From Giardia intestinalis (taxonomy: Eukaryota), in NCBI GenBank assembly GCA_000002435.2, contig CM018790.1: a stretch of 64,000 nt of DNA; one strand, written 5' to 3'. Under the pieces are notes generated by a model. The model saw only the letters and a list, made by a program, of their open reading frames with translations, was not told where the DNA came from and did not search any database. How positions within the stretch are numbered: the first letter of the stretch is position 1; every line of letters starts with the position of its first letter. Made by a program: the position numbers and the translations under genes. Shown here one piece after another: positions 2,161 to 62,023 of the stretch.

Positions 2161-2337
2161 TTTACTCTGAAATGTCACAAAAACTTCTGTAACGAAAGGG
2201 CTGCTGATTACACACAACCAATGGGCTAGCGAAAACCCTGGTGCCCCCTATGGTCTGGAGCAAGGCCCAAACGGGTAACTTAATTTAAAGCTTAAACGCC
2301 TGTGGTCAAGACATTTCAGAGGCCACAAAATTAAAAT

Positions 2338-42629: not shown

Positions 42630-42731
42630 GGCCTTTATCAGTTTTGCCTTTTTTTCACCGAGGTTTTGCAACCATTGGCGGAAAATCTGTACTTTTTAGA
42701 TATTACATGTGCAATGGCCATTGTTGGCCAA

Positions 42732-43145
42732 ATGTACCCCGAACTGAATGCACTGTCCAACGCATATGCGGTCGACATGGCCATTCAGCACGAGTCTGCG
42801 AGGATCGTTGTAGTACGCTTCGGGCTCCCTGACACCGCTGCCTGCGCTGAGATGGACGAGCTTCTTGCCGAAACGATGGTGCGTCTGTCACGGATGGCCA
42901 TCTTTTACACCGTTGACCGAAATGTTGTGTCAGGATTTGATGAGCTGTATGAGCTAGAGGATGATGATTTTGCGCTCCTCTTCTATTATAGAGGAAGACG
43001 GATGCAGTGTGATTTCGGACGATTTGGAAAGTACAAGTTGACCGTTGTCCCACCAAGCACAGACACCTTCATTGACGTGATCAGCGAATTGTACTATAAT
43101 GCGCAGCTGGGACGGTTTAGCTGTACGTCTCCCTGGCAGCCATGA
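42732..43145 (+). CDS. DIM1: Dim1 / TXNL4-type thioredoxin-like U5 snRNP protein (137 aa)
   Basis: IVVVRFGLPDTAACAEMDELL (compare VVVIRFGHDWDPTCMKMDEVL), AIFYTVDRNVVSGFDELYELEDDDFALLFYYRGRRMQCDFGRFGKYKL (compare AVIYLVDITEVPDFNKMYELYDPCTVMFFFRNKHIMIDLGTGNNNKI), TFIDVISELYYNAQLGR (compare EMVDIIETVYRGARKGR). The ORF-track start at 42666 is a TTG. The ATG at 42732 (MYPELN...) gives a Dim1-length protein. Confidence 0.65.
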   Translation: MYPELNALSNAYAVDMAIQHESARIVVVRFGLPDTAACAEMDELLAETMVRLSRMAIFYTVDRNVVSGFDELYELEDDDFALLFYYRGRRMQCDFGRFGKYKLTVVPPSTDTFIDVISELYYNAQLGRFSCTSPWQP

Positions 43146-43169
43146 TCCAAAATTCTCAAAATCAGACTC

Positions 43170-46100: not shown

Positions 46101-48026
46101 TATACCAAGTCTGGTGAAACAGCCCTTATGCTAGCGGCAAAGAGCTACAGAGGTAAGATGGACAAGAATCTACTCGCTCTCGAGGCAGGAATGCGGGATT
46201 CCTATGGAAGATTGGCATCGTGCATTGCCATAGAGCGTGGAAACACAGAGTTTCTCACTGAGGTTCTTCCGTATGAACGGGATGCTCTGATTGCAGATGG
46301 ATTCACAGACCTAATGCTTTCTATTCTTGAGGATGATTATGTTGCCCTGATGCACCACCTTAAGAATCCAGAACAGCAATGCGGTCAAGTCGTCATGTCA
46401 GCTTACACTGCGCTTAACATTTGCATATACTGTGGCAAGAATACGCTTATACCGCTTTTTCTGCCCTACGAAGCCGACATAGAAATCCACGACAAGCTTA
46501 AGCCGTTGGACCTCGCCTATGCGACCCGCAACGTCGAGGCCATACTTCTCTTAATGCCTTACACATACACGGGAGGGCGACTGGCACTCTCCCAGTGCCT
46601 TTCCAACCTCATTCGAGCAGCCATGAAGGAGCAGCGTCTTTCAGATACAAGAGCATATGACCTTCTAGCAGCATTTCACAGCTCAAACTATCGCCAGCTC
46701 AAGGAGGCTCTTCAGAGTAACGACATTCAAAGCATGAAGGCGTTCAAGGAGCTGGCAGATAGTTTCCAGGCCGTTGCTTTGAATATTGAATACCTTGTTC
46801 TCCCAGACGCTGTCTTTGATGACAATGGAAACTCTCAACTACACATCGCTGCCCTGGCTGCAGATACACGTCTTGCAGCTGCGTTTGTACATCTGCATAG
46901 TTTGCGCAACAAAAAGGGAGAAACAGCGCTCATGCTCGCCGCTCGAAGCGGTTCTGAAGCCGTGGTCGACATCCTTCTAAACTACGAGGCGGAGATGCAG
47001 GACAACAACAAAATGACGGCAACGGAACATAGCATTGTGAGCGGCACATTCCACAAAGTTCTGAACCTGTATACACGGGAGAAGGCCTTTCTCGTTAACG
47101 AGTGTGAGCTTTCTCCTCTCATGCTTGCTGTTTTGGAAGGAGACATTAAAACTGTGAGCGCCGGCCTCAAGTATGCAAAGCTGCGCACATCGTCTGGAAT
47201 GACTGCTTTGCATATGGCTATCTACCTCCGGCAGCAAGCACACGCCAATCTCCTCAAGATGGAGAAAGGAATCCTCACATACGATGGCTTGTCACCGTGG
47301 TTCTTAGCTAAAGAGAAGCGCATGGCACATGATTTCTTAGAACCTGACTCCACGGTAGATGCATTGGGCTGTACAGAGCTCCATCGGGCTGCAATCCAGA
47401 ACAATTCGCAACAAGTAAGGAACTACTTACCTCTTGCGCAACAATATAATGCAAATGGTCGCACCTCTCTTATGGAAGCGGCTCTTGCCGGTTCACTAGA
47501 CGCCGCGAAGATACTCGTCGACCATGAACACGGAATGCGGGCAAGGGCCCGTTTCGTTGTGGGCAATAGCTACTTTGATGAAGCCACTGCATTAATGTTT
47601 GCTGCCGCTGCAGGGCATGAGAGCATTGTACGGCTTCTGATCCCCTACGAGTGTAAGATGCACGAGTCGTGCAACGGAAAGACGGCGCTGATGGCTGCCG
47701 CGGCAGCGGGTCACCTTTCCACCCTTAAACTCCTGATTGATAGCGAGGGAGGGCTTACAGGCCAAAATGGCTGGACCGCGCTGATGTCTGTAGTCTCTAA
47801 GCAGTACGTTGATTGCGTCGCTCCCCTGTTGGAGAAGGAGGCAGGAATGCGGGATTCTCAGGGAAACTGCGCTCTTGTGACAGCAATAAGCAACGGGAAC
47901 ATGGACATCGTACGGGTGTTAGCTCCAATTGAGGCGAAGATAATGGGGAAATCTACTCTCATGCGCATCTGGAAGAGCAACATAGCATACGACGAGATAG
48001 TTCGGTATGTTAACAAGCTACTATGA
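43170..48026 (+). CDS. ankyrin-repeat protein (protein 21.1 family) with an N-terminal NEK-like pseudokinase domain, 1618 aa
   Basis: About 40 ankyrin units of the Giardia type (GNTALVYAI..., GRTALMYAAECGYLAAIDVL..., GKTALMAAAAAGHLSTLKLL...). The N-terminal 230 aa have a kinase fold (YAFKYF..., LITQLLEGV..., APPEV...SADIWMIGAILYELLT) but lack the GxGxxG, HRD and DFG catalytic motifs. ATG 24 bp after the Dim1 stop. Confidence 0.8.
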   Translation: MADNEYTLISQVSATENCKTMLVQHNGTGNYAFKYFYTSWPVPNARLRSCMDAYLQLTCPHIIRLQTYSIDTAFTLVTDMTNGPSLRSLIIKRRIAQQWFTSVEIWLLITQLLEGVKAYQSFYARVGAAADTPPNLFLSPFFILISDEERMKLQITEFYQTLLLPSVQRLYATSGVAPPEVSKHLPISASADIWMIGAILYELLTLQQLDLDRLIELNSDVVTLAKIDNLYPIDYEPLEPYQSVAVYSFLDHGKAFRYRELYSLLSCMLIINPDKRPPVELLLDYALLHTPALVQPGSPGSSLSRPEDGHVPREKGGNDAAIQSSIIVGSDAPDATLQNTLLVGVKTELHKAVEENNLDKLFMNLQFARSTDIDGNTALVYAIKANNEDAVKILAQEEIGVLTGEGYSPLHLALLLNHIQLAKYLDASYDLQFLHGVELWVDEHGVSNLMRCVCERNLVGVYYYSDKQQKLQDYDGKTALIKAVLNYNEGLPAGQEDVNLAIIRLLRLHEARIQDKRGRTALMYAAECGYLAAIDVLSGSEAGMRDNEGHNSLEMAFSNRKLEAARRMLLLEPVPHSCPDRQGLTDLMKACIEEDAFSLFCHMTQTRATDINGNTALMHCVIHDRPEFIPELSEEYRMINRITGHSAMMLAVQLERRACFEALIKHESGLKSSSGMTALMMCASQGLRPYVNRLLNIETNIFNGTWNAMTYAIAANHHEIIGLLAPLELNLSAVLKDYDALTDTAAEIQQELEGAASSVRSTISLNSGYTPLMFAAQQANINAVWGLRDKYLGRKDQHGFTALIYATRVKSLECCRLLVDERDILCNQGLSAWFYAYQNGYHEPLDIIRPTIKYANTEHRLTDLHMLILRNEVPLSSVQPGGTVSSSLTADSTVRSSSAKSSLHHRDPHEGLQSTYTPNRFRRSQVTTSAILCPKELSNTSNMISLESSLVLPEDPPTKTQPDYLQDVSTLLYLTKLYTKSGETALMLAAKSYRGKMDKNLLALEAGMRDSYGRLASCIAIERGNTEFLTEVLPYERDALIADGFTDLMLSILEDDYVALMHHLKNPEQQCGQVVMSAYTALNICIYCGKNTLIPLFLPYEADIEIHDKLKPLDLAYATRNVEAILLLMPYTYTGGRLALSQCLSNLIRAAMKEQRLSDTRAYDLLAAFHSSNYRQLKEALQSNDIQSMKAFKELADSFQAVALNIEYLVLPDAVFDDNGNSQLHIAALAADTRLAAAFVHLHSLRNKKGETALMLAARSGSEAVVDILLNYEAEMQDNNKMTATEHSIVSGTFHKVLNLYTREKAFLVNECELSPLMLAVLEGDIKTVSAGLKYAKLRTSSGMTALHMAIYLRQQAHANLLKMEKGILTYDGLSPWFLAKEKRMAHDFLEPDSTVDALGCTELHRAAIQNNSQQVRNYLPLAQQYNANGRTSLMEAALAGSLDAAKILVDHEHGMRARARFVVGNSYFDEATALMFAAAAGHESIVRLLIPYECKMHESCNGKTALMAAAAAGHLSTLKLLIDSEGGLTGQNGWTALMSVVSKQYVDCVAPLLEKEAGMRDSQGNCALVTAISNGNMDIVRVLAPIEAKIMGKSTLMRIWKSNIAYDEIVRYVNKLL

Positions 48027-48049
48027 GGTGACAACCATTTACATTTGAG

Positions 48050-50239
48050 CTAATACCGATACTCTCCAGAACCCACCGAAGCCATCAGATCTCTCATCTG
48101 GTTCTTTGTAAGTCTCTCACTCGCACGGGAAACTGCCAAGGGACTTGCTGTGATGGACATGGCCGGAACCGATGGCGATCGCGGGTGACTGCGGTGGGAG
48201 GCGGAAGTATCCTGTGGCTGCGCATGAATAGAGAAGCTCACAGAGCGATCAATCAGCCCTCTGTTCTCCATTGCTGTCGCTATATCTCTATCCGCGCGAT
48301 CCATTACATATGTACTGCTAGGTGGAGGCGCACAGGATCGATCAAACCCTCCATATCCATAGCCATTTCCTCTGCTAGAGCTTCCAGACAGCCTATTTGC
48401 CTCGCGTGCTGCATCCTCTATTTGATTGCTAATTGCATCTTCCATAACTGCACGGTTTTCTAGGAGCTGGATTCTTCGTCGGGCTCGCTCTGCCCGCTCA
48501 TTCCGCTCCCGTTCAAGTGCTGCCTCAGTTTCCCTCAAAATACGGAGCTTCTCCTCAGCTTCTTTCCGTGTATTCTGCGACTCTATAGCAAGCTGGTCGA
48601 CTACCCGTCTCGTGCTCTCTATTTCTGCTTCCTTGCAGCGTATATTTCCTTGCAGCCTTTGCATATCACGTTCAAGCTGCATATTTCGACGCTCTCGCTC
48701 GTCCATGGACTCTGTCATGATTACAATGCGAGACTTTAGATTGGCCACCTCGTTTATCCGCTGCTCCAGCTCTCCCTCGCATTGCTTCAGGGAGCTAAGT
48801 AAACTATTGAATTCTCTGCACTTAGTATCATGAACGACCTTTAGATCTGTGAGGTTGTCATAGAGGTCCGACACTCTTCTGTTGAGGCCCTCAATGTCTC
48901 CTTCCATTAAGTTTTTGTCCGCTTGAAGGGATGCCACTTGACCTTGTAGTGCTGTGCACTCGCTGCTCTTGCGCATCATGCCGTCCTTTATTTCTCCGTT
49001 GATTTTCTGCAACTCGCAGCAGGTGTCGGAAAGGGTGCGCAGGTCTGTCCTCAGCTCTTTGATTATTTCAGCCATTGTTTTCTTGCCAGTTGCTGAGAGA
49101 AATGCCCACTTATTACGTATCTGCTTCGACGGAGGCCCGGCCCCGCTTATGGACTTGACGAAATTGCACTCCAGATAAATAGCAGACTTAAGAGCGAGAA
49201 GAGTGATGGCATCCTGGCTTCGCATGCTGTTGTACGTTGTGTTATCGATTAGACTAGCTATCTCGGCTATATCATCGGGGCGCAACTTGTTGACAGAACT
49301 ATTGATATTGTCATTGTCGCTTGAAATTTTGTGTCCATACCCTCTTCTGCTTTTCGTCAGCTCCAGAAGTCTACCAACAAAAACAGCTGCCTTACATATG
49401 CTGCGCAACTTCGAGACAGCCTTTGGCGTGCCCTCAAGGATTCGTCGCATACGAAGAGTCTCGTCCAAGAGTAGCTCAAAATGACCAGTGGTGAAGTCCT
49501 TTTGCCGTCGTAGCTCAGCTACCACTCTGTCCAGCTGGAGCACTTTCTTCGCAAGCTCTTTTGTTGCTGTCAGCGACTGGTTCGCTATTTGCTCATTAAG
49601 CAGAACGGCCCTGCTCAGCATCTCATTCTCCTTACGCACAACAGTGAGCTGTGTATCTAAGCCTGACGCTAGCTGCTCTGCTTTCTCTGTGCGGTCCTGA
49701 AGCACCTTAGTGTTCTCAGTAGCAGCATCAACGCGCCGCTGAAGGTCACTCGACAGCTGCATCTGACCGGAAAGTTGCTGCTGGAGATCAGCAGCTTGCT
49801 TATTCGCGGAAAAAAGCGCGGCTCTGAGAGTTTGTATCTCTTTCTCCTGCTCCTCAGCACGAGTGAGCGAAGCCATGTGCTCTGCACGCAAGATATTTGC
49901 ATGTTCCAGCAATCTCTTAACCTCCATGTCCTTCTCCTGTACTTCCCTTTCCAAAACAACCTTGCGTGCAGAGGTTCGTGAGAGTGCATTTTCTAGTGCA
50001 TCCACCCGTGCAGACTCCTTTAGCTGCTGCATTCGCAGGTTTTCCAAGTCTATCTCCTTCTGCACCGCTGCCGCTTTGACTTCATTCAGGAGCACACGCT
50101 GTTGCTCGAGGGCCAGTATTGATTCCTTATCGATCAGCTCCTGGCGCAGCTCCATGTGTTCTGTGTCAGCTCTCGACGAGCCTTGAACCTGCGTCATATG
50201 GAGCGATGTGTCCATGGGTACCATGCGAGACGTGCGCAT
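48050..50239 (-). CDS. coiled-coil protein, larger paralogue of 41334..42629 (729 aa)
   Basis: The N-terminal TEHMELRQELIDKESILALEQQRVLL...ARVDALENALSRTSARK and the C-terminal RAERARRRIQLLENRAV...SPLAVSRASE...KNQMRDL blocks are shared with the 431-aa gene. A central coiled-coil insertion of about 300 aa is extra. True ATG start. Confidence 0.55.
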   Translation of the reverse strand: MRTSRMVPMDTSLHMTQVQGSSRADTEHMELRQELIDKESILALEQQRVLLNEVKAAAVQKEIDLENLRMQQLKESARVDALENALSRTSARKVVLEREVQEKDMEVKRLLEHANILRAEHMASLTRAEEQEKEIQTLRAALFSANKQAADLQQQLSGQMQLSSDLQRRVDAATENTKVLQDRTEKAEQLASGLDTQLTVVRKENEMLSRAVLLNEQIANQSLTATKELAKKVLQLDRVVAELRRQKDFTTGHFELLLDETLRMRRILEGTPKAVSKLRSICKAAVFVGRLLELTKSRRGYGHKISSDNDNINSSVNKLRPDDIAEIASLIDNTTYNSMRSQDAITLLALKSAIYLECNFVKSISGAGPPSKQIRNKWAFLSATGKKTMAEIIKELRTDLRTLSDTCCELQKINGEIKDGMMRKSSECTALQGQVASLQADKNLMEGDIEGLNRRVSDLYDNLTDLKVVHDTKCREFNSLLSSLKQCEGELEQRINEVANLKSRIVIMTESMDERERRNMQLERDMQRLQGNIRCKEAEIESTRRVVDQLAIESQNTRKEAEEKLRILRETEAALERERNERAERARRRIQLLENRAVMEDAISNQIEDAAREANRLSGSSSRGNGYGYGGFDRSCAPPPSSTYVMDRADRDIATAMENRGLIDRSVSFSIHAQPQDTSASHRSHPRSPSVPAMSITASPLAVSRASERLTKNQMRDLMASVGSGEYRY

Positions 50240-50386
50240 TTAGAAGGAAGGCAAAAGTTAGCAGACTTTATTAAAAGTTGTCTATGTGCTCAATAAAATA
50301 TTAGCTCACGGCTACGGAGGGATTGTTGAAAAACTTCGCAGCCCTTAGCAGTATACCAAAGCTTTATTAAATTGTTCGTTGAGCAG

Positions 50387-51496
50387 ATGCCTCTTCTGTC
50401 TGTCAATAGTTGGTTTGGAACCAAGTCTCCCTTCTTCACTCAGAATATGCGGCACTGCGTGCCTAACCCAGGGGTTATCCTCATAATGTCGCTTTTGTTT
50501 ACCGGATCAATAATTTTCCTAATAATCAGCGCGATAGCTTTTTCGTTCAATTCTGCACAAGCATATGGGATAGCACACTACTCTACACCTTCATCTGGAG
50601 CATCTTCTCAAACAGAGCCAGTGACTGTTACTCTCGAACGATTTAATGTGGAAAAGCCCCTTTACGTATACTACCATCTACAAGACTTCCATCAGAACGT
50701 TCGGTTCTATGTCTCTAGCTTTAGTAGGAAGCAGCTCCAATCAGACAGCTTTAAAGCCGCTGGTCTGAACAAGGACTGCAATAAAGGGGGGACGGTAGTA
50801 GATGAGCCATGCGGCCTTATTTATCAATCCTTATTCAACGATACCTTGGCTAGTACCACAACAAACGAAGTAACCTTTTATATCACCAGCACAGACACCT
50901 CCGCAAATCCGTCTCAACCTATAAAGGTTCAGTTGCCTATTAATACAACGGGGATTGCCTGGAAGGAGGACATCAAGAGCACTAGAATGTATGGAAAGGC
51001 ATTCCAAGCTCTTCCAAATAGTGAAGCTGTTGCAGTATGGATGCGAACAGCACCCCTAAGTACATTTGACAAGCTTTACGGACGGTTCACTGCAGAGCAA
51101 CTCAAGGCCCTCGTCACAGACTCTTACACAGCGGAAACCATATATGATGCTTCGAAGGCTGGCGGTGTAACCGTGGAGTTTTCGGTGACAAATAACTTTC
51201 CATACGGGAAGAAGTCCATTGTGCTGCAGCAAATGACCGTTTTCGGAGGATACTATGAAACAAGGAACTTAGCAATCTTATCTATAATCTTAGGGTGTGT
51301 CATGTTTATCTGCGGACTTACTCTTCTCATCATCTTCCTCGAACGCGGACCGCGGAGTGCCAAGTATAAGACAGTCTTAGAACAGTATCCTATAGTTACC
51401 AATAGCAGCATTCTCCTGTCTGAGCTCGAAAGGATGGGGGACGAGAAGGTCCGCAGAACCATACGCCAGGTAAAGGCCGAAATGGGACTCAAGTGA
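50387..51496 (+). CDS. CDC50/LEM3 (TMEM30) family protein, the P4-ATPase beta-subunit family
   Basis: Family motifs: PLYVYYHLQDFHQNVRFYVSS (the FYQNHRRY block) and DEPCGLIYQSLFNDT (the PCGLIAxSxFNDT block). Two transmembrane helices flank a large glycosylated ectodomain. The ORF-track start at 50372 is a TTG; the first ATG is at 50387. Confidence 0.7.
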   Translation: MPLLSVNSWFGTKSPFFTQNMRHCVPNPGVILIMSLLFTGSIIFLIISAIAFSFNSAQAYGIAHYSTPSSGASSQTEPVTVTLERFNVEKPLYVYYHLQDFHQNVRFYVSSFSRKQLQSDSFKAAGLNKDCNKGGTVVDEPCGLIYQSLFNDTLASTTTNEVTFYITSTDTSANPSQPIKVQLPINTTGIAWKEDIKSTRMYGKAFQALPNSEAVAVWMRTAPLSTFDKLYGRFTAEQLKALVTDSYTAETIYDASKAGGVTVEFSVTNNFPYGKKSIVLQQMTVFGGYYETRNLAILSIILGCVMFICGLTLLIIFLERGPRSAKYKTVLEQYPIVTNSSILLSELERMGDEKVRRTIRQVKAEMGLK

Positions 51497-51525
51497 CTCT
51501 AGAGGTAAACAAAACGCAGTGTGGT

Positions 51526-53220
51526 TCACACGCTTTTTCCATCGCAACTGAAGATGTCATCAACGCGCAGGATCATACAAGCATTTTCTATAGCGGCCTT
51601 GAGGACCTGCAGCTTTGTGCTCAGTGGGTCCCAGATGCCCTGCTCCTTGCAGTTGACGAGGAGCCCTGTGACCCCATCGACACCCAGCTGACAGTTCGGG
51701 TCACTGGTGTGGGCAGCCTTGAGCTCGGTGATGGTCCTTATTATATTCCCACCGCAGTTCTGCAGCAGCGTCCGTGGGATCACCTCCAGGGATTTGGCGA
51801 CTGCCTTAATGACAAGCTGAGGCTTTCCGACAAGGGTGTCTGCATACTGAGAGAGTGCCGTCGACAAGTGAGCCTCAAAACAGCCTCCGCCAATGACCAG
51901 GCGCGGGTCAAGGATAATATTCCTGCACACGTGCATGGCGTCCTGAATGTTCCGCTCTATCTCCAGCAGGGTGCTCTTGGAGGCGCCTCGAAGCACAATG
52001 GTACAGGCACTGGCCTTACCCCCAGATTGGTGGATGAAGGAAAAGAACTCGTCACCGATCTTCTGGAGCTCATAGAGGCCTGCGTATGTCCCCACATCAC
52101 TTTCTTGAAGCTCCTCCACGCGACTGACAATGGTGGCACCGGAAACTGCCGCAAGGCGCACGTTGTCTGTCTTCCTGACGCGCCTGAGGACTGTCACGCC
52201 GTGCTGGACAAACATATGAGTCGCCTGATCCGCCACACCCTTCTCGGTGATGACCAGGTCGGGCTTGAAGCTGAGGATCTTCTCCACGTGGGTCCTAATG
52301 TAGTCTTCTTCGACCTTGAGTATGTCTCCTAGATCAGACTTCCCTTGGAACAGCTCTACGTTCATCATTGATTGGGCCTTCTTGTACTCTAGAGGGCAAT
52401 CCAGAAGAAGTATGCGGGGATTCTTGATGTACTTCCTCATATCGGGGTGAATGACATCCTTATTAAGCACTACGCCATCGATGACGCAGCAGTCCTCCAC
52501 AGTCGCACCAGGGATCTTCTCTATGCGGCAAAACCTCTTAATATCAATGTCAACTGAAGCACCAAGCTCTGCTTCATCCCCTTTTGAACGCGCATCCTTA
52601 GTGACACCCACTAGACCCTTGCGCACCTCCGCTCCACGTCCTCTAGCGACTATGCTGACCGCCTCGAGCGCAAGGTTGCACATGAGATCCATCCATCTAC
52701 TGACAAACTTCGTGGATAGCGAGTTCTTTAAAACTGTCATAATAGGGCCTGCCGCCTCAGACTTCAGACCCAGGATCTCTATGCCCTTTATATTTATTTC
52801 AAATGAAGATCTTTCTGCCTCACTCAAAAGAAAGTCCAAGGCTTTCTGGTATCCCTGCGTAATGAGAATAGGATGTATCCCACACTTGAGAAGGGGCTCT
52901 GCCATGGCGATCACCTCCCCTGCCAGGATGACAACGCTTGTGGTGCCGTCTCCGACTTGCTCCTCCTGGGCCCGTGAAACCTCCAGCATGGCCTTGGCTG
53001 CGGGGTGTGCCACGTCGAGCTCGCGCAGGATGGCGTTCCCGTCGTTTGTCATGACCACGCTCCCCATTGAGTCCAGGATCATCTTGAGCATGGAGCGTGG
53101 GCCCATCGTTGTCCTGATGACGTCTGCGACTGTCTTACTTGCCTTGATGTTGTTCATGCGGGCCATTTCTCGGCGCTCGCTCTCGGTGCCTTGGCTCAGG
53201 ACATAGACTTGGGGCTGCAT
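51526..53220 (-). CDS. CCT3: T-complex protein 1 subunit gamma (CCT3), 564 aa
   Basis: Group II chaperonin motifs: TNDGNAILRELDVAHPAAKAMLEVSRAQEEQVGDGTTSVVILAGE. The N-terminus aligns specifically with CCT-gamma (VLSQ.T.RE.G......NI.A.KT.AD.IRT..GP.SM.KM.LD.MG). ATG start. Confidence 0.9.
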   Translation of the reverse strand: MQPQVYVLSQGTESERREMARMNNIKASKTVADVIRTTMGPRSMLKMILDSMGSVVMTNDGNAILRELDVAHPAAKAMLEVSRAQEEQVGDGTTSVVILAGEVIAMAEPLLKCGIHPILITQGYQKALDFLLSEAERSSFEINIKGIEILGLKSEAAGPIMTVLKNSLSTKFVSRWMDLMCNLALEAVSIVARGRGAEVRKGLVGVTKDARSKGDEAELGASVDIDIKRFCRIEKIPGATVEDCCVIDGVVLNKDVIHPDMRKYIKNPRILLLDCPLEYKKAQSMMNVELFQGKSDLGDILKVEEDYIRTHVEKILSFKPDLVITEKGVADQATHMFVQHGVTVLRRVRKTDNVRLAAVSGATIVSRVEELQESDVGTYAGLYELQKIGDEFFSFIHQSGGKASACTIVLRGASKSTLLEIERNIQDAMHVCRNIILDPRLVIGGGCFEAHLSTALSQYADTLVGKPQLVIKAVAKSLEVIPRTLLQNCGGNIIRTITELKAAHTSDPNCQLGVDGVTGLLVNCKEQGIWDPLSTKLQVLKAAIENACMILRVDDIFSCDGKSV

Positions 53221-53308
53221 TTTTTATTAAGGCAGTTTTTTGCCACTCTGTTTACTCTGCTCAGGCAGGCTGACGCAATAGTGCACTGGTATTCATGTTA
53301 TGGGGATC

Positions 53309-55037
53309 TCACATAGACGGGAACGAGAGCCCTCTGCTGTCCTTCTTCTTGGGCCCGGCATATGAGGATGTGAGTCTGCTCATTAAAAAATAGAAACAAT
53401 ATTGCTGTAGTTTTGTCTCTTGGCGATGTCGAGGACCGTGGTACCAGGTGGAAAGCATCGATCTTTGCAGGTAGTTCTCATATCCCTCTCCCTTTCCATA
53501 AGTAGCTTGGCACACTCTGTTTTGTAATGATACACTGCCTTCATAAGAATGGTCTAGCCAGTGGTACTCTGGATGCCAGCTTTTTTGTCCATCAATAGCT
53601 TAACACATTCTGAGTGATTATTATGCGCTGCATACATGAGCGCAGTTTGGCCATGTCAATTTTTCATGCCACCTTCGTGCTTTATTAGCAATGTAACCAC
53701 TTCTGTGTGCCCATGCACCGCTGCTAACATCAACGCTGTCTCTTCGTATCCATTCCATCCACTTATGTCAAAATACTTCGCTGTCTTTCCCTTTCGGATA
53801 GAAATAAAACGATTCACAGCCTCCATATCCCGCATTCTACAGCCTGCATGAGCCTGGTGACGCCTTTATTATCTGTCGGATCAAGGAGCTCCACAATATC
53901 TGTGTGCTTCACTAACAAAGCAAGCATCATCGTGGTTTTACCATTGCTATTCACCCCATATTTACCAGACAAATACTCCAATGCAGTGCTCTTGGAAGCA
54001 GCGCTTGTGAGCAGAGTATATGAGAAATCCTGTATAGCTGACTCCTAAAATCCTTTCTAGAGTCATTTATCTCTCCTGATTTGAGGCTAAGGCTGTTCTC
54101 AAGAGGCTCGATCTCCGATTAGCATTGTCTAGAGCAGCCTCTAGTGCCGTGACTCAAGCCCGTAGTCTTCCTTTTAGAACACCAGATTCTTGAAGCAGCC
54201 TACCAAGCTCCCTGGCTGTTGGTCTTTGAGTGGGGTCTAGAACAAGCGCTTTCTTGAGGATACTCCTTATGAGGTCGTCTTCAACTGCACTCAGGCTGAG
54301 CCTTTGCCCATCAACGAAGACATTCCTCGGGTGCTGCTCCCAGGAGATTAGGCATTTGAAAGTGAAGAGCTCATAGGCGGTAGCACCGAAGACCCGACGT
54401 CGAACGTAGGGCCGGTCTCGTCCCTGAGGTGGATCTCGGGAGCCATGTATGCTTGGTTCCCAAAATGGCACTCCCATTGTGCAGGACATCCTTGCAGAGC
54501 CCGAAGTCCGCAAGAGCTGAGCCTGCCATTTCTGCTGACATCGACTTTGTCGGGGTCGTGAAGGTAGGTAAGGATGATGGCGATCTGCTCCATGATGGAG
54601 AGCACTGTATCGGTAGGGTTACCGGTTCTTGCTCAATCGGCAATCACATCTTGAGGCACCGATCTCAGCGGTCCATGATGATGAAGATGGAGTGAGCGTC
54701 TCTGAGCACCCGGTAGTGCCTAATGACATCTAGGTGTGAGCGTCTGGAAATGGTGGCCAGCGCGACCCAGTGGCCTCCGTGAGCTTCCCACTCTGAGTCT
54801 TGGATAGCCACCTATCACATGGACAGTACCAAAGCTGCCCACATCAAGCACCCCTCCTCGCATCGATGCAGCTCGTCGGCGGGCACAGGATATCGAGTGC
54901 ACCGTCCCCAGCCATGACGGTGTCAACGGCGCTGTGCAGAGCACGCTCGGGGGCAGGGAAGCGGCCACCCCTGCTCCCGGTTGCTGGCTGGCTGGCGAAG
55001 TACATAAGGCGCACCCGCTTGTCGGCAGCTGCACCAC
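53309..55037 (-). pseudogene. decayed NEK-kinase / coiled-coil / ankyrin-repeat gene, inverted paralogue of the plus-strand gene at 56947..59030
   Basis: A kinase N-lobe fragment (GGVLDVGSFGTVHVIGG), catalytic and activation segments (ADFGLCKD..., AYMAPE, PTQRPTARELGRLL), a coiled-coil fragment (LEAALDNANRRSSLL) and ankyrin units (GKTTMMLALLVKHTDIVELLDPTDNKGVTRLMQAV, TALMLAAVHGHTEVVTLLIKHEGGMKN*HGQTALMYAAHNNHSECVKLLMDKKAGIQSTTG*TILMKA...PGTTVLDIAKRQNYSNIVSIF). They are spread over at least four frames, with in-frame TGA and TAG stops. Confidence 0.6.
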
Positions 55038-55047
55038 TAGTGACGCG

Positions 55048-55053
55048 TTTACT
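55048..55053 (-). promoter_or_regulatory. putative polyadenylation signal AGTAAA of the VSP gene
   Basis: The minus strand reads TAG-ATGTACTTAGGT-AGTAAA, matching the Giardia AGTPuAA consensus 12 nt after the stop. Confidence 0.35.
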
Positions 55054-55065
55054 ACCTAAGTACAT

Positions 55066-56277
55066 CTACGCCTTGCCCCTGCAGATGAACCACCAGCAGA
55101 GGAAGCCCACGAGGCCCCCGACGACAACGATGACAGCGACGGAGATCCCCGCGATGGCGCCGGTAGAAAGGCCGCTCTTGTTCGTGCTACCGCCATCTTT
55201 CATGAGGTAGCAGAGAACGGGGCCTTGATTATTAGATGGGGGAGCGCAGCTCGCGCAGTTAGCGACGCCCTGAATGTTATTGCTTGTCTCTGTACACAGC
55301 TTGCATGCTTTACTGGCGTCCAAGTAACGGCCAGGTGGACAGGCGCTGCACTTATTGGGCTGATTAGCTTCGGTGCATGTCGCACAAGTGGAGTCGCATA
55401 ATGGACACATGTTCGAGACAGCTGTCAAGCCATTCGCACACGTTTGGCATTTTCCATCCCCAGTGGGCGTTGTGCAGATGCTCTTCCCGGGGAGCCTCGT
55501 CGTCTGGTAGCACCCGCCCTCCTGGATGAAGTATCCGGCGGCGCAGACCGTGCAGGCACCGTTAGCGGCAGTGGTGCAGAACCGAGTCCTGGCCGCATTG
55601 CTTGTGCAGACGCCATTGAGCGGCACGTTGTTCCCCTTGCACTTCGAGCAGTACTTGGTACCTCCAATTGTTAGGCCGCACGTCTCGCACTCCGGGCCCT
55701 CCACGCATTGCTCCACGCACGTGCCGTCTGTAGGATTGCTCTCGTCGGCGTACCTCAGCATCTTCCCGGCGGGACAGGCCGTGCACTTGGAAGCGCCGGC
55801 CCCGCTGCACTCCGCACAGGAGGGGTCGCAGGGCGCGCACGTTTGTCCGGATAGATACGTTCCGACAGGGCAGGCATCTAAGCATGCCTTCTTCGTCGGG
55901 GTCAGATGCTTTCCTGGTTCACATTCTTCGCAAGTCTGCTTGTCCGGGGAGCACGTCTGGCAGTTCACGATCGGGCAGTCGGCCTGCGGCGTGCACTGCG
56001 TCCCGTCGTCGTTGGGGTCGAAGCCAGGGCTACACGTCTCGCACCTTGTGTTGTCGCCAGAGACGCACTGGGCGCAGTTCTGGACTCCGCAGTCGGACGC
56101 GGGGTTCTTGGTGCACTTCTTCGTGGTGGGGTTGAGGGTGTAGCCTGAGCCGCACGTCTTGCACTGCTGGGGGTTGCTTTCCTCGCAGACATCACAGCCC
56201 TCGACCTCGCACGGCGCGGTCTTTTCGTTGTGCTTTGCCAGCACGGTTGCACAAACTAGGAGAAATCCTACCAACAT
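55066..56277 (-). CDS. variant-specific surface protein (VSP), 403 aa from the first ATG
   Basis: Signal peptide MLVGFLLVCATVLA. About 25 CXXC pairs. The GGCY motif (IQEGGCYQ). The invariant VSP C-terminus GLSTGAIAGISVAVIVVVGGLVGFLCWWFICRGKA. The ORF-track start at 56334 is a GTG; the ATG is at 56275-56277. Confidence 0.9.
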   Translation of the reverse strand: MLVGFLLVCATVLAKHNEKTAPCEVEGCDVCEESNPQQCKTCGSGYTLNPTTKKCTKNPASDCGVQNCAQCVSGDNTRCETCSPGFDPNDDGTQCTPQADCPIVNCQTCSPDKQTCEECEPGKHLTPTKKACLDACPVGTYLSGQTCAPCDPSCAECSGAGASKCTACPAGKMLRYADESNPTDGTCVEQCVEGPECETCGLTIGGTKYCSKCKGNNVPLNGVCTSNAARTRFCTTAANGACTVCAAGYFIQEGGCYQTTRLPGKSICTTPTGDGKCQTCANGLTAVSNMCPLCDSTCATCTEANQPNKCSACPPGRYLDASKACKLCTETSNNIQGVANCASCAPPSNNQGPVLCYLMKDGGSTNKSGLSTGAIAGISVAVIVVVGGLVGFLCWWFICRGKA

Positions 56278-56946
56278 TAGCCGGAGTTCGTATGCCACTG
56301 CTCTTCTGTCAGGCCGGTGCGTTGCCGCGAGCACTGAGAGACAGCCGCTCTTGCTCTCTTGATCGGTTGGACTGGAGAGGGATAAGATAATAGCACACCC
56401 ACCGGAGGCCGGCTGATGGCACGGTTCCCCCTGGCTTCGATAGGAACAGGACCAGTGAGGAGTAGACTCAGACCGTGCCTCTCTTGTGGAATGATTGATT
56501 GGGGTGCACTCTTGTACATTGCTGTCACTGTATCACTGGGCCCACCTGCAGGTGCGCTCAGAGGCCTCACGGGTAAGCTGCGCCCACTTCTCGACCGTCC
56601 GGAGACGATGGCTGGTTGTGGATAACATACTAAAAGCTCCTCTCCATCGATGCATCCAGAGCTCAGTGTCGTCCCGGTCGGCATACTCTGTCGGGGCACT
56701 CCGCGTCGGCCTCCAGGGTTCGGCCTGCTCAGGGCCATACGAGCCGCTAATGTGCCCTCCTTGGCCTGCCATCAGCAGCTCGCACTAGGCGCCTTACTCA
56801 GGCAGTAGCCAAGGCCACTCCAAAGGGTGGCTCCGGATTGCAGTTAAAATCAGCGGCGGCTGTTGACTCCACTCCCTATCCCAGCTGCCGCAGAGGGTGT
56901 CCTGGGAGACGCTAGTAACAGTGCAGTTAGCGGCTTTGCAGGGCCG

Positions 56947-59030
56947 ATGGGCGTTTGGGGAGCGTGCTCAGAAGGGGCCTTCAGTGTTATCTACTCTCTC
57001 AGGGGATGCCCCCACCTCATTGTGAAGGAGATCCGGCTCGACGGTCTGGGTCAGCACGGTGTGGATGCTAAAGCGTGGGCTGACCGCTCTTTTTATCCTC
57101 TTTCACCCGGGGGTCCTCAAGTACCATCAAGTGATTGAAGACGAGGGCCTTATCTATGTCGTCACGGACCGGCACAGCAGGACTCTTGACAACTTCCTCA
57201 CCGAGCACAAGCGAAGGAAGATCCCCGTGTCTGCCGGCGTGATCCTCTCCGTCATGAAGCAGGTCGCCGCCGCCCTCGCCTACCTTCACAGCGTCAGTGG
57301 GGCAAACACTAAAGGCCTCGTCCACTGTGACCTCAGGCCTGCCAGCATTCTTATCAGCGCAGACGGAGAGCGCTTCATCATCGCCGACTTCGGCCTCTGC
57401 AAGGACGCCCTGTGGAGTGAGAGCACTCTCATAGGAATAATGGCGTACATGGCCCCCGAGGCGCTCCTCCGTAATGAGGCCAGCCCCGCCTCCGACGTAT
57501 GGAGCCTCGGGGTCATCATTTATGAACTAGTAACTCTGAGGAGACCGGACTTCTTGGGGGGCAAGGAGCCGGCAGAGGTCTTCGTCGACGGGTGGAGGCC
57601 GGACCTGAGCGGTGTCGCTGATGGCTTCATAAAGAGTGTTCTGGAGAGGATATTCGTGCTGGAGCCAGAGAGGAGGCCGACGGCCAGGGAGCTGCACGAG
57701 ACGTTCGCTACATTCGACATCCCAGTTGGTGAGCTGAGGGCTCAATACGCGGTGCTGAAGTACGAATGCGGCTCCTTGGAGGCTGCGCTGAATGGCGCTA
57801 ACGCCAGGATCGCGCTGCTGGAAGAGGATGTTAAGACTAAATCCACTAAGATCGACGCACTCGAAGACCAAGGTAAGGAACATCTAGCCATGATTAAGGC
57901 ACTGGAGAGTAGGCTTGCACAGTTCAGTGACAGGATGAACACGGCTGACCCTCAGTCCAGCCTCCTTTTGCTGCCCAGGCTGATGCGTGCCGCGCATACG
58001 AACGGCATGGAGACCGTCCGGATGCTGCTTGAAGAAAGACTCGGTGTTGGTCAGCGCGACGCACAGGGGCACGTTGATCCCGTCGAGTTGTTTGTTGGGG
58101 AGGAGAGGGGCCTCCAGGACAAGAACGGCTGGACTACCTGATGATCGCCACAGAGGAGGGCTATGCAAGAACTGCCTCCCTTCTGGTCCCATATGAGAAG
58201 GACTGGATCGACAGCGAAGGCAAGACGGCCTTGGTGATTGCGGCAGAGGCAGGACATGAAACTGTGGTGGAGGCCATCGACCCAACCGATGAGAACGGCG
58301 TCACGGCGCTCATGCGGGCTGTTAATAGAAATGATGTGGGGGCTGTAAAAGCACTCTTACCCATCCAGAGGGGGAGGAAAACATACAAAGAGGTCACAAT
58401 AAGCGGATGGTACATGGGCAAAGGAACAGCTCTGATGGTGGCTGCGGCAAGTGGACACGCAGAACTAGTAGAACTGCTAGCAGAGCACGAAAAGGGGAGA
58501 AAGTAGGCGGTTGGGCCGCTCCCGTATTCGCGGCACTGTGCAATCGTTCCAATGACCCCCTGGTGGACTATATTGGGCACGTTGAGCTTTTGATGGAGTA
58601 TGAGAGCAGTATCTCAGGGTGGACGGAGCTCATGTATGCAGCAGCACGAGGGCACGAAGGAATCGTAGAGCTGCTCAAGCAGGAGACTGGCATAAGGAAC
58701 AACGAGCATCAGACTGCCCTCATGTGGGCAGCACGCAATGATCATCCAGAGTGCGTCAGGCTCCTACTGAAGGACGAAGGCGGCATGCAAACGACCAAGG
58801 GCTGGACCGCTCTTATAAACGCAGCATATAGCAACGCCGTGGAATGTGCAAGACTTCTTAAGGAAAACGAGAAGGAGCTGAAGACAATTTCTAGCTGCCA
58901 TGATCACTCGCCCGGTACCACTGTCCTCAGTATCGCTAAGAAGAAGGATCGCAAAGAGATAGTAGGCATCCTCCCAAACGAGATCTGCTCTTCTTTATCG
59001 AGGTCGGCTTGCCAGCTCCTGTCCGAGTAA
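56947..59030 (+). pseudogene. NEK kinase / coiled-coil / ankyrin-repeat (protein 21.1) gene broken into four reading frames. It is either a pseudogene or carries sequence errors
   Basis: Segments: 56947..57138 (MGVWGACSEGAFSVIYSL...IVKEIRLDGL, kinase N-lobe); 57059..58141 in another frame (HCDLRPASILI, ADFGLCKD, YMAPE, coiled coil, first ankyrin); 58141..58506 in a third frame; 58407..59030 in a fourth. At 58135-58145, ...NGWTT*MIATEEGY would read GWTT-L-MIA if one base were restored. Confidence 0.5.
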
Positions 59031-62023
59031 ACCCGTCCAGGATCCGAAGCTTAGATGCCGCCCACTCTGGAGAAGAGCCTTGTGCATCCCGCCTGGAAGC
59101 CGTTGGGTGCTCCACTATGCATTCCGGAGCGTCTCTCCTCTCTGACTGGCTTGGGTCAACCATCGTCTGACATCTAGTGAGCACCCGCTGTCTCGGGCCT
59201 TGCGTCAGTCGTGGCGATCCAGTCTCGAGAGCAGTTAACTCTGGCCATGTACTCTGGAGTAGCTTTGTGGCCCTGGTGCTCTACGACGAGGATCGCACGC
59301 CACGACCCCGGGTGTCGACTCCCGTTCCTCGGGGTGCCTCTTCATCTTCTCGTGGAGGGCACCATCTGTTCCATTATCAAGGATGCGCTCCCCGTGTGCC
59401 TCTATCCTGGAGTCATAGTACGCATTCGTGGATGCCGATGGAGTACTCTTATACGTTGTGTCGGGGGAGAGGCCCACCCCTCTGCTCATGGATCGCAGTG
59501 CGCTCTTGCAGGTGGTCCGTCACCCAGCACGAGACCGTGTCGACGCTCACCCTGTGCAGTGCGTCTGGCTCAGTGACCTGTGGGCTGGTCCATCTGCACT
59601 GCACAACACACTTGGGGGGAATGATTCGGTCTGTCGAGGCGTCGTCCAAAGCATCACGAGCGATCAAGACCGGTTCGCCGTTAGGCCGTCTTTCTCTACA
59701 CCGGCACCCGTCTACTCGAGGGTGTCAGGTACTGCCAGCTGCTGTAGTAGACACCCAGCAGGTGGCCCAGACCACTACTCCTCGGTGCGGACAGGATCAG
59801 TCCGCCTCTGCCAACCAGACACCCCAGGAGCCCCATCTCTTGTCGAGGGACTCACATAGGCCACGTGTGGGTCCATCTCGACCAGCGGGGCGAGTGATTA
59901 GTGCCATCACTGGCTTCAGGTTCTCTGCTGCCTTGAGGGGTCCTTCGAGACCAGCCAGGAAGAAGGCCTCCTGCTCCTCTGTGCTCCTACACCCAGTGCT
60001 GACCGTCGAGCCATGCTGCTTCCCAGGCCTGTCGCCTCTGTGACTATCCTCGCCGCGTCACTGTTGTCGGCATGGGCACTGAGTGGGGTATCTCCTCAGC
60101 TCCCGATGAGCAGGTTCTGTCCCGCGCAGTGTGAAGGCATACTCAGGGCCCCGAGGGACCGAATCCAGGGGTGCAGCGTGTCGCAGCTGAAGGAAGGCCT
60201 CGACGCAGCTCCTCGGGACTACCTTGTGGAGCGAATCATGATCGTCCATTGATTGTGGTCGCCCTGTCTCATTCTTGAGGAAGGACCAGGCGGAACCGTA
60301 CAGAGCACGCATCCCATCCTATGGATCGCGCTGAGGATCTCGTTGAAGGCCTGCACCCGGATGGACTCGCCAGCGCAGACCCGGGGACTTCGAGCCCCGT
60401 GGACTGGCCGTCCGTGCTCTCCGATGGCTGAGGGGCTCGTGTCCCTCAGGGGCCAGGCCGTCCTGATCCGGCCCCTCTGGATAGCAAGGTTCTGGTCGTC
60501 GGTGGCGCTGTCAGGGTGCAGCTCCCCCTCGAGGCGAGGCAGAGGCTGCAGGCCGGGCAGTGGGGTGGTGACTGTTGCTCCTCTGCTTCCCCGCTGTGTG
60601 GGGAGGCACGTCTCCTCGGCTCTCGACTGGAGCTCTGCGGGGTGTTAGGTACCCTCCCCTGAGCACGTTCGCACGACGGGCGCTGAGGGGGATTTCCTTC
60701 TCTATCCCCGCTGCCCCACTCAGCAGCGCCCTGCATCCGGTGTCTGTGCTGCATGCGTCTGGACGGCCTCACCGCGGAGGGTTTTCGCGCAGGACAGGCA
60801 CGTGCTCTTCCGTTCCTACTAGTTCAACGTTCGCCTGGTGCCACTACAGCGTAGGGCGCCCCTCTCCATCAGGTTCCTAAGATCCTCGTTCTCGCTGTGA
60901 TACCTGATCTCTCCCCCGTGAGGGGTGGGGTCCACGGTGCACTGGTGTGTGTCCGGGACGATGCCCCCTCATGGAGCTCTGCAGGTTCCAGGACCCTCTG
61001 GGGACAGCCAGCAACTGGGACCCCTGCTGTGAGCTAGGTTGAACTAGCTCCACCGGGCCACGAGCAGCTTCATGGCACTCTGGTGTTGCTGGTCTCTCAA
61101 CCGCACATGCTTGGCCTGTCCTAGCAGATAGTGGGGTCGTGCCTGAGTACTTTCGAGGAGTCTGGGAAGCGCTCCGGTCCGATGCTTTCTATCCAGAGCA
61201 TCGCGACGGGCAACGGTGAGGGCCCGCGTGGGACACCGCACTTGGGCACCAAGGCTCGGTGTGCGTGAGCTGGCACCGTCTGTCGGTCGAAAAGCTGCAG
61301 AAGGAGCAGCAAGAGGAGCCCAAAGCGGGAGAGGGTTCTCCAGACGTGCTGCTCGAGACCCTTTAGAAGTCGAAAGAGACATGGCAGGAGACGCAGAAGT
61401 GGTCGAGTGGCTCTTCGTGCTGTGGATCGCGTAGGAGGTCCCCGAGGGCGCAGTCTCTTAGTGAACCTGGCGTTCTTGAGCCAGTTCATGTAGTCAGCGA
61501 GTGACCCCTTCAGGGCTAGGTGGTCTCCTAGAGAAACGGTCATTGAGGGCCTGCCACCATGCGCCGCTCTCCATGATAGGGAGATTCAGCGGAGAGAGGT
61601 GTGGGGCCCCTTACTCATTCTATCGGATGCTTTCCAGACTCCATTCTTCGAGCCCCTGAGAACCTTCCTCGGCAGCTCGCTCGTGGGAGCGGTTGCCGGT
61701 CTGCTGCTTGCTGAGGGCTGGGCGTCGGGGCTATCAGCTTTCCGTTTGGGCTTCTTCTCCCGCCGGAACTGGATGGCACTAGATTCCTGGACCCTAGGTT
61801 CGAATGTCGAACAGATGAGTGAGAGAAGACCTGCCTGGTGTGGCGACTCGCACGGAATTTGCTCGGACAGATTGTCTAGAGGTTCCCCAATGGAGTTAAA
61901 TATCTCATAGATTGATGATTTTAGAGACAACAAAGGTGGCAAATTTCAGAGATGAGTGGATTACGCCGGGTGGTTTACTCAAGCTGCAGCTACCAAGATT
62001 CTAGTTAAAGCTCCTACCTTAAG
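59031..62023. other. GC-rich, ORF-poor region of about 3 kb between two convergent genes. No recognisable coding or RNA feature
   Basis: The region is visibly more GC-rich than the flanking genes. The longest ORFs are 84-288 aa, overlap in all six frames, are R/S/P/G-rich with low-complexity translations, start with non-ATG codons, or lack AT-rich initiators. Confidence 0.3.

Follow-up and report, generated by a model that had tools for sequence, protein, structure and literature searches.

A GC-rich, gene-less block at a VSP/NEK locus of Giardia intestinalis WB: probable neutrally evolving spacer or relic DNA

Results

Based on the sequence comparisons presented here, the GC-rich block that follows a frameshifted NEK gene of Giardia intestinalis is very probably functionless spacer or relic DNA, which would be evolving neutrally in a gene-poor, recombination-prone and isolate-variable VSP zone. 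It would be the remnant of something whose function was lost long ago (for its left end, before the split of assemblages A and E), and its original identity is unrecoverable. The neighbourhood may be read as a series of decay, leading from a NEK copy with few frameshifts, through a shattered NEK copy, to the block, in which nothing recognisable is left; the block may persist because selection does not favour deletions in this zone. The coordinates of all features are given in Table 1; the window is the whole stretch of 64,000 nucleotides that was analysed.

Table 1. Features of the block and of its left-hand neighbourhood, in order of position in the window
Feature	Position	Strand	Remarks
NEK/ankyrin pseudogene, shattered	53258-55065	-	absent from P15 at this position
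Intact VSP	55066-56334, or shorter depending on the start codon	-	PF03302, E = 2.6e-119
Frameshifted NEK	about 56863-59030	+	absent from P15 at this position
Non-coding block	59031-62023	.	2,993 bp, GC 0.603
Left segment	59036-59532	+	positional homolog next to TCP-1 in P15 (L013, 743-180)
Longest open frame	59171-60043	+	290 codons stop-to-stop; 288 aa from GTG
GL50803_11803 (XP_001708661.1)	60058-60312	-	84-aa ORF, 'hypothetical protein' of 2007
Hyper-divergent stretch	60660-61105	.	7-22% mismatches per 100 bp against L014/L017
GL50803_98230 (XP_001708660.1)	61044-61382	-	112-aa ORF, 2007 annotation only
Low-divergence stretch	61110-61870	.	11 substitutions in 760 bp (1.4%)
GL50803_88658 (XP_001708659.1)	61121-61543	-	140-aa ORF, 2007 annotation
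Right homology breakpoint	61862-61870	.	CTCGGACAG; two contigs leave WB here
3' flank of the ~1,133-aa gene	61871-62023	-	AT-richer; poly(A) signal AGTAAAC at 61973-61979

Extent and composition of the block

The window is from G. intestinalis WB; its TCP-1 gamma and GL50803_17412 products exactly match WB proteins. The block is delimited on the left by the NEK stop codon (TAA, 59028-59030) and on the right by the stop of a minus-strand gene of about 1,133 aa, at 62024. The preliminary description of this DNA had placed about 3 kb between the 3' ends of the two genes, and the gap measures 2,993 bp. Its statement that gaps elsewhere are only 1-200 bp long is too strong, because ORF-poor gaps of 0.5-1.8 kb are found in the same window (34007-35447, 53221-55065).

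Concerning base composition, the GC content of the block is 0.603 against 0.507 for the whole window, with a peak of 0.66, and the two GC-rich runs that had been quoted are located at 60451-60481 and 60638-60665. The reported shift towards GC is thus present, but it starts before 59031: the GC-rich zone is wider than the block, extends from about 54000 to 61700 with values of 0.56-0.62, and takes in both the VSP and the NEK genes. The level is not peculiar to the block: it is common to the adjoining genes (intact VSP: 0.605, NEK: 0.58), and PFOR (2335-6096) is just as GC-rich (0.594). The GC content of the block matches that of the VSP and NEK genes which surround it.

Absence of coding signal

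No credible gene was found in the block, in agreement with the preliminary description: none of the six frames carries a coding signal. Stops number 23-32 per ~997 codons in all six frames, the calculated figure for random sequence of the same GC content being about 31 per ~1,000 codons, and the codon-usage score favours no frame of the block. Three-base periodicity is also absent: the 3-nt Fourier scan, which had been proposed earlier, gave no residual coding frame (signal of 0.3-3.1 in the block vs 5-12 in the GC-rich VSP and the NEK kinase domain). In the Pfam search of the six frames (E <= 1) only two sub-threshold noise matches were obtained, and no ankyrin, kinase, VSP or RT domain.

The six-frame map had been described as a lattice of short ORFs. 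The random density of stops agrees with this, but one frame of 290 codons (59171-60040, plus strand) is a mild anomaly and exceeds 98.4% of dinucleotide shuffles. Its GC content by codon position is flat (0.585/0.616/0.612), it is broken by a stop in the P15 isolate of assemblage E, and none of its five alternative starts was found by exact look-up; this frame was judged spurious.

Divergence from assemblage E

In P15 a positional homolog of the left segment lies beside TCP-1, and the comparison spans ~500 bp of the block, after which the P15 contig degenerates into Ns. Over this length identity is 68-72%, and 10 of the 11 gap runs are not multiples of three. The divergence (p = 0.331, JC 0.44) can be set beside that of the fourfold sites of TCP-1, CDC50 and GL50803_17412 between WB and P15 (p = 0.27-0.31). 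The left segment holds no ORF that is common to WB and P15. Judging from this alignment, the segment has been near TCP-1 since before the A/E split and has drifted at the rate of synonymous sites, with indels that break the frame; the earlier characterisation of the block as long-dead DNA fits such a neutral rate and such indels.

P15 lacks 53258 to ~59000 at the orthologous position, with breakpoints at 53257 and ~59036. The block is therefore partly old flanking DNA, outside the inserted or deleted cassette, because its left ~500 bp keeps its position in P15.

Variability of the VSP/NEK neighbourhood

The two NEK copies to the left of the block are inverted copies of each other. The cluster had been called a decaying VSP/NEK cluster, which holds for both NEK copies but not for the VSP, which is intact. 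Looking at the DH isolate, synteny with WB is broken inside the 3' end of the VSP, at 55224, and WB-DH divergence, 0.2-1.8% farther out, reaches 11% on approaching the VSP; assemblies of short reads are interrupted at about 54342. Homology between isolates is lost abruptly at about 59036 and 61870, which are at or close to the two ends of the block, and on either side of the cluster divergence increases as the VSP is approached. The suggestion that this segment varies between isolates was borne out by these breakpoints and by the steep divergence toward the VSP. The block is VSP-adjacent and gene-less, with elevated variation and synteny breaks, which are the traits of VSP-associated gene-poor variable regions.

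Block ends and inverted repeats

A tentative refinement, less likely than the plain reading as spacer or relic, is that the block forms, as in inverted vsp pairs, the spacer of an inverted-repeat structure that has since decayed, or that it is an invertible segment, flipped or remodelled in some lineages. The former arms would have been at least 120-170 nt long and made up of the NEK-tail motif and adjacent sequence; such a structure would refine the main explanation and does not contradict it. The last codons of the NEK read CTGTCCGAG (59019-59027), and the right breakpoint carries their exact reverse complement, CTCGGACAG. Past 61870 the metagenome contigs L014 and L018 carry a different flank with a copy of the NEK-tail motif, and their junction, present in two independent assemblies, falls exactly on this perfect 9-bp inverted repeat. 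In P15, the sequence that directly adjoins the TCP-1 promoter can be aligned with L014 74-243 (score 41 vs 12.5±1.8 in shuffles), a stretch composed of a NEK-tail-like motif and the reverse complement of WB 61870-61751. The same P15 sequence aligns with the reverse complement of the WB right end (30 vs 12.3±1.9 in shuffles), and the same contig runs on into WB 59155-59452 in direct orientation. The size of the spacer also lies within the 2.2-3.8 kb of inverted vsp pairs (PMC2996952).

The arms are nevertheless inferred transitively, via P15 and L014, the match within WB being 9-19 nt; past 19 nt the WB ends are not significantly similar (p = 0.02-0.11). The halves of the block have no inverted similarity, no second NEK or VSP copy is found on the right side in WB, and the contigs of 1.4 kb fit an inversion and a different right-hand neighbour alike. 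A palindrome of two decayed gene copies was considered separately and rejected, the halves having neither inverted nor direct similarity. Concerning the remainder of the right end, 61871-62023 is weakly alignable by eye with the 3' flank of the assemblage-B-like ortholog, and blastn homology ends at 62015.

Right part of the block and metagenome alleles

Two independent metagenome contigs cover 60660-61870. The hyper-divergent stretch contains, relative to L014/L017, an indel of ~83 bp near 60873-60881. Divergence between WB and L014 goes from 1.4% to 10-22% toward the VSP; the jump to more than 10% is abrupt, at about 61105, just beyond the stop of the 140-aa ORF, and in 61545-61870 divergence is down to 0.6%. 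This sharp edge, the low values to its right and the occurrence of one and the same allele in two independent samples would favour a functional non-coding transcript or regulatory element in the right ~760 bp (61110-61870), for instance an antisense or long non-coding RNA. Such an RNA could be linked either with the VSP cluster or with the neighbouring gene at its 3' end. From the comparison of two sequences and the scans below, we regard this as improbable. The value of 1.4% is the ordinary local WB-DH background within assemblage A (0.2-1.8% in flanking genes), and a gradient like this steep rise is seen beyond the VSP cluster as well; the low divergence would therefore be the norm and the adjoining stretch the outlier.

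The RNA searches also speak against a functional element. The Rfam scan of the block (gathering threshold and E <= 1) returned nothing, the tRNA scan gave no hit, and folding z averages about 0 for either strand, with no excess folding. Segments resembling tRNA or rRNA had been reported as lacking, which agrees with these scans, and the long non-coding transcript put forward earlier as a candidate finds no support in them. Looking at poly(A) signals, the block has a single AGTRAAY on the plus strand (61460-61466) and none on the minus strand.

There is a small chance that the block is a recombination substrate (2.8 kb with inverted NEK-tail arms, remodelled between lineages), or that its right 760 bp is a conserved VSP-linked non-coding transcript. 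If true, flipping or remodelling of a 2.8-kb segment would help to shuffle the adjacent VSP/NEK cassette.

Repeats, pseudogenes and mobile elements

Our preferred reading of the block as decayed spacer or relic DNA was compared with several more specific origins. No repeats or tandem repeats were found in the block; it has no similarity to the rest of the 64-kb window (blastn and tblastx, NEK copies included), or to the neighbouring genes of the DH, P15, B-like and G. muris loci. The exact-pattern scans of JGI metagenomes gave no match, and no Logan contig spanning the block was found via look-ups of the NEK and VSP products.

A remnant of a neighbour gene was rejected: tblastn with the G. muris ABC transporter (convergent with the ortholog there), the DH 1,906-aa gene and others gave nothing below E = 0.07. 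A NEK/ankyrin (21.1) pseudogene was likewise rejected, with no Pkinase or Ank in the six frames and no similarity to the NEKs of the window; the shattered NEK at 53258-55065, by contrast, can still be recognised. Nor was a VSP remnant found, by PF03302 or by tblastx against the VSPs of WB and DH. CXXC occurs 0-3 times per frame in the block, up to 5 times in shuffles and 18 times in the neighbouring VSP. The preliminary description had seen neither a CXXC-rich frame nor ankyrin units nor a reverse-transcriptase YxDD motif; the counts and the six-frame Pfam search agree with the first two, and [YF]xDD is absent from all six frames.

It had also offered a dead non-LTR retrotransposon as a candidate, and a GilD-like copy eroded past domain recognition would suit the length of the block (~3 kb, about that of GilD). 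Retroelement fragments have in addition been reported at some non-syntenic sites between WB and P15 (PMC3091692). We consider such a copy very unlikely: besides the missing YxDD motif, no RVT, endonuclease or zinc-knuckle domain was found in the six frames at Pfam E <= 1, neither poly(A) nor terminal repeats are seen, there is no second copy within 64 kb, and P15 has the left end at the orthologous position. The candidate is thus left unsupported, with no trace of RT or endonuclease, no repeat and an orthologous left end.

ORFs of the 2007 annotation

Three minus-strand ORFs of the block were included in the 2007 annotation, and they were the only matches in an exact look-up of 15 in-block ORF sequences. 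That one or more of them (GL50803_88658, GL50803_98230, GL50803_11803), or the 288-aa frame, represents a genuine lineage-specific protein gene is suggested by this annotation, by the intact state of the 140-aa ORF in the second allele and by the unusual length of the 290-codon frame; it is, however, highly improbable. All nine differences (9/9) between GL50803_88658 and the metagenome allele change the amino acid, and none of the 11 substitutions between WB and L014 is synonymous in the annotated ORF frame. Periodicity and codon bias are absent, GL50803_98230 and GL50803_88658 overlap in different frames, and the 288-aa frame is interrupted in P15. The minus strand of the block has no AGTRAAY, and therefore no poly(A) signal follows any of the three ORFs; the NEK, the VSP, the dead NEK and the 1,133-aa gene all have one within ~50 nt of the stop. 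The three ORFs have 2007-era identifiers only, with no current NCBI accession, and they are mentioned neither in the supplementary tables of PMC3610916 (strand-specific RNA-seq) nor in the results of a full-text search. By these measures they behave as chance ORFs.

The 11 substitutions leave one codon phase entirely untouched, and 7 of them would be synonymous in a plus-strand frame. This frame was rejected as coding because of its many stops in both alleles and because the sample is 11 sites.

A foreign (laterally acquired) origin, another earlier candidate, has a practically negligible probability and is close to refuted: the GC content of the block is above the genome average, but its native neighbours VSP, NEK and PFOR have the same GC, no plasmid or phage matches it, its longest ORF has no relative in 185,579 prokaryote genomes, it contains no Pfam domain and its left end is older than the A/E split.

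Comparison with known systems

GilD is reportedly a 'dead' family of Giardia non-LTR retrotransposons, and its size is about 3 kb. Compared by description, the block is also ORF-less, eroded and about 3 kb long; it differs in that it lacks any remnant of RT or endonuclease, is not repeated in the window and occupies an orthologous position in another assemblage.

The two members of an inverted vsp pair have 2,190-3,847 bp of non-coding DNA between them (Adam et al. 2010, PMC2996952). Like these spacers, the block is non-coding, 2.8-3.0 kb long and at a VSP locus, and its ends have traces of inverted arms with abrupt loss of homology. Unlike them, it is not flanked by an identical gene pair in WB, its arms are short, degenerate and visible only via P15 and the metagenome allele, and the arm motif is the NEK tail and not a vsp.

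In the regions that are not syntenic between WB and P15, 'hypothetical' ORFs, VSPs, NEKs and Protein 21.1 predominate (Jerlström-Hultqvist et al. 2010, PMC3091692). The present locus resembles these regions in differing between WB and P15 (5.8 kb of NEK-VSP-NEK are missing in P15), in the WB/DH synteny break in the VSP and in its content, which consists of the listed families and short hypothetical ORFs; the left ~500 bp of the block, unlike such regions, keeps its position in P15.

Few genes and higher variability characterise the regions around VSPs, and small ORFs were over-called in the first WB annotation (Xu et al. 2020, PMC7000408). The block lies 2.7 kb from an intact VSP and has no credible gene, it shows elevated divergence between isolates with an increase toward the VSP, assemblies of short reads are interrupted nearby, and its small ORFs of the first annotation have no current NCBI accession. 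Nothing substantive sets it apart; its GC content of 0.60 is higher than that of typical Giardia intergenic DNA and equal to that of the neighbouring family genes. The importance of the block is little beyond housekeeping: it supports the treatment of GL50803_88658, GL50803_98230 and GL50803_11803 as spurious, offers a quantitative case of VSP-adjacent DNA that drifts at the synonymous rate, and adds small data points on the turnover of VSP neighbourhoods (the 5.8-kb cassette, the 9-bp inverted-repeat breakpoint and the two-sided divergence gradients). The block is one instance of an already known class, the VSP-associated gene-poor variable regions, and a concrete example of the fast-changing DNA known around VSP genes.

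Locus and extent of the block

The block between the NEK gene and the convergent minus-strand gene (59031-62023) has no function: it is spacer or relic DNA that drifts neutrally within a VSP-associated region prone to rearrangement, and regions of this type have already been described for this genome (PMC7000408, PMC3091692, PMC2996952). Based on exact-sequence look-ups of gene products, the window belongs to Giardia intestinalis WB (ATCC 50803). The features identified are presented in the table.

Features of the window in and around the block
Feature	Position	Strand	Basis
PFOR	2335-6096		Pfam
GL50803_17412	48050-50239	-	exact-sequence look-up
TCP-1 gamma	51526-53220	-	exact match XP_001708669.1 / KAE8302410.1
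Giardia VSP, intact	55066-56334	-	Pfam
Kinase + ankyrin (NEK) pieces	57026-59030	+	Pfam
GL50803_114590 (last NEK fragment)	58407-59030		exact match
GL50803_11803	60058-60312	-	exact match, 2007 annotation
GL50803_98230	61044-61382	-	exact match, 2007 annotation
GL50803_88658	61121-61543	-	exact match, 2007 annotation

The gap extends from the NEK stop (59028-59030) to 62024, where the minus-strand gene has its stop, and measures 2,993 bp, which bears out the gene-free stretch of about 3 kb in the preliminary description. The block is also GC-rich as described there (0.603 vs 0.507 for the window, with a maximum of 0.66 at about 60250-61000), but this enrichment spans a larger zone, about 54000-61700, that takes in the VSP (0.605) and NEK (0.58); PFOR (0.594) is as GC-rich as the block. 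The intergenic gaps of 1-200 bp previously given for the rest of the window are too narrow a range, since further ORF-poor gaps of 0.5-1.8 kb are present. One of about 1.4 kb (34007-35447) has no ATG-ORF of at least 150 aa, no Rfam match and no tRNA.

Logan short-read contigs from several sequencing runs are 100% identical to the window over up to 4 kb, and the frameshifted and fragmented genes are therefore genuine and not assembly errors. Those bearing TCP-1 that were read all stop at 54300-54471, most at 54342, within the dead NEK; this shared end marks a repeat or heterozygosity boundary. Elsewhere, two abutting open frames on the minus strand (402-1160 and 1150-2247), 253 and 366 codons long, have a few bases in common and may be a single frameshifted gene or two genes.

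Coding, RNA and repeat content

Each of the six frames of the block contains 23-32 stops per ~997 codons, and the calculated random-sequence expectation at its composition is about 31 per ~1,000. Only an open frame of 290 codons (59171-60040, +) is mildly anomalous: it exceeds the longest in 98.4% of dinucleotide shuffles. The GC content of the 288-aa ORF is flat across codon positions (0.585/0.616/0.612), while GC3 is 0.72-0.81 in true GC-rich Giardia genes of this window. A log-odds scan of codon usage, with the long genes of the window as training set, favours no frame of the block. The 3-base Fourier signal is 0.3-3.1 in the block vs 5-12 in the GC-rich VSP and the NEK kinase domain; that of the shattered NEK pseudogene (53234-54755) is similar to the block (1.1-2.4). 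Pfam searches of the six-frame translations at E <= 1 give two sub-threshold noise matches only. With random stop density, no periodicity and no Pfam domain, the earlier view that the block holds no credible gene stands, as does the absence of a YxDD motif and of a CXXC-rich, VSP-like frame (no CXXC enrichment was found). The same applies to tRNA- or rRNA-like segments: Rfam (gathering level and E <= 1) and ARAGORN detect no RNA family or tRNA in the block. On either strand, the folding energy of 200-nt windows does not depart on average from that of dinucleotide shuffles (mean z about 0). The block contains no notable direct, inverted or tandem repeats, its halves show no similarity to each other, and neither blastn nor tblastx links it to other parts of the window. 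Plasmids, phages and prokaryote genomes contain nothing that matches it.

Three in-block ORFs are identical to entries that the 2007 WB annotation lists as 'hypothetical proteins'. These and GL50803_114590 have only 2007-era identifiers (EukProt/MetaClust), whereas the neighbouring real genes also have current NCBI KAE accessions; we therefore infer that the 2019/20 re-annotation removed all four. According to Xu et al. (PMC7000408), small ORFs were over-annotated in the first annotation, and the surroundings of VSPs contain few genes and show more variation between alleles. No AGTRAAY signal is found downstream of ORF140 (GL50803_88658, 140 aa) and ORF118. Long antisense 'shadow' ORFs lie opposite PFOR (3805-6108, 768 codons) and the VSP (55526-56143), and demonstrate that chance ORFs arise readily in GC-rich Giardia DNA.

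Comparison with assemblage E and the NEK-VSP-NEK unit

In the P15 (assemblage E) contig ACVC01000072.1, the region upstream of TCP-1 matches WB up to 53257, and about 120 bp past this point homology to WB 59036-59532 begins in the same orientation. WB 53258-~59000, comprising the shattered NEK(-), the VSP(-) and the frameshifted NEK(+), is therefore missing at this P15 position. As the homologue of 59036-59532 sits there in the same orientation, the leftmost ~500 bp are old DNA, located near TCP-1 already before the A/E split. This comparison covers the block up to the 59532 equivalent, after which the contig has Ns and then unrelated AT-rich sequence. Over 59036-59532, WB and P15 differ by p = 0.331 (JC 0.44), with 11 gap runs (7, 1, 1, 1, 1, 1, 6, 1, 11, 34 and 5 columns) and no common ORF; in the same pair of genomes, fourfold-degenerate sites of TCP-1, CDC50 and GL50803_17412 give p = 0.267-0.305. 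The segment thus evolves neutrally.

The NEK copies at 53258-55065 (-) and 56863-59030 (+) are head-to-head, inverted copies flanking the intact VSP. Six inverted-repeat pairs link them (e.g. 54558-54602/57245-57289 at 80%). The left copy is broken into many frames, the right one lies in at least three (57059-58141, 58141-58506, 58407-59030), and the 5.8-kb NEK-VSP-NEK unit has an AGTAAAC poly(A) signal at both ends.

Comparison with DH and metagenome alleles

The DH (A2) contig L009 is collinear with WB (A1) over 41526-55224. At 55224 (L009 7994), inside the conserved VSP 3' end, DH switches to a different VSP and different downstream genes, and this VSP 3' end looks like the recombination point. 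WB-DH divergence is 0.2-1.8% in core genes and 3.2%, 7.2%, 6.5% and 11% toward the VSP. On the other side, two metagenome contigs in ENA that come from separate samples (L014/L017, covering WB 60660-61870, and the shorter L018, 61150-61870) are mutually 100% identical over 844 bp. WB differs from this allele at 11 of 760 sites in 61110-61870 (1.4%, ordinary A-A background) and by 7-22% per 100 bp in 60660-61105, with an indel of ~83 bp. Since both sides climb, divergence forms a gradient into the cluster on both flanks; together with homology to L014/L018 that breaks exactly at 61870, this agrees with the earlier proposal of an isolate-variable segment.

All 11 substitutions in 61110-61870 are non-synonymous in the ORF140/ORF118 frame, and within ORF140 9/9 alter the amino acid. 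At the same sites, 7/11 are synonymous in a stop-filled plus-strand frame. Their coordinates have remainders of 0 or 1 modulo 3 only (61121-61870); that one codon phase is left empty is probably due to chance (a probability of about 0.035, counting any of the phases). L014 and L018 terminate at an identical base, 89 bp past their 101-aa ORF.

Right-hand gene

The 625-aa ORF extends off the window; it represents the C-terminal portion of a protein of ~1,133 aa. Its orthologues are the assemblage-B-like P0030 (70% identity, from the full HMMER scan) and P0032 of G. muris (29%). The B-like contig stops 258 bp past the P0030 stop codon, where the sequence becomes GC-rich. In G. muris (CM016927.1, 10001-15667) a convergent ABC transporter follows the orthologue after 10 bp, with no gap, and the block holds no trace of this transporter. 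The junction is non-syntenic between the two species, because gene order differs on both sides of the orthologue.

Origin of the block

The original identity of the block is irrecoverable from its sequence. A plausible account is a decay series in the neighbourhood, which would lead from frameshifted NEK through fragmented NEK to nothing recognisable.

Concerning the block ends, WB has CTCGGACAG at the 61870 junction, the reverse complement of CTGTCCGAG (59019-59027, the final NEK codons), and past the junction the metagenome allele contains the NEK tail again, over 24 nt with 22/24 identical. Beside TCP-1, P15 aligns with the L014 flank and the reverse complement of WB 61870-61751 (significant scores of 41 and 30 vs about 12.4±1.9 in shuffles), and the P15 sequence then goes on, in direct orientation, with homology to WB 59155-59452. 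The simplest reading, tentative and rather doubtful, is that inverted arms no shorter than 120-170 nt formerly flanked the block. The left arm would have decayed in WB, where the ends match significantly over 19 nt only, and the L014 lineage would carry either an inverted block or a right arm lost from WB; the alignments, on short contigs, fit both inversion and a retained right arm. Adam et al. (PMC2996952) described inverted vsp pairs with 2,190-3,847 bp of non-coding DNA between them, and the block ends bear a degenerate likeness to these pairs.
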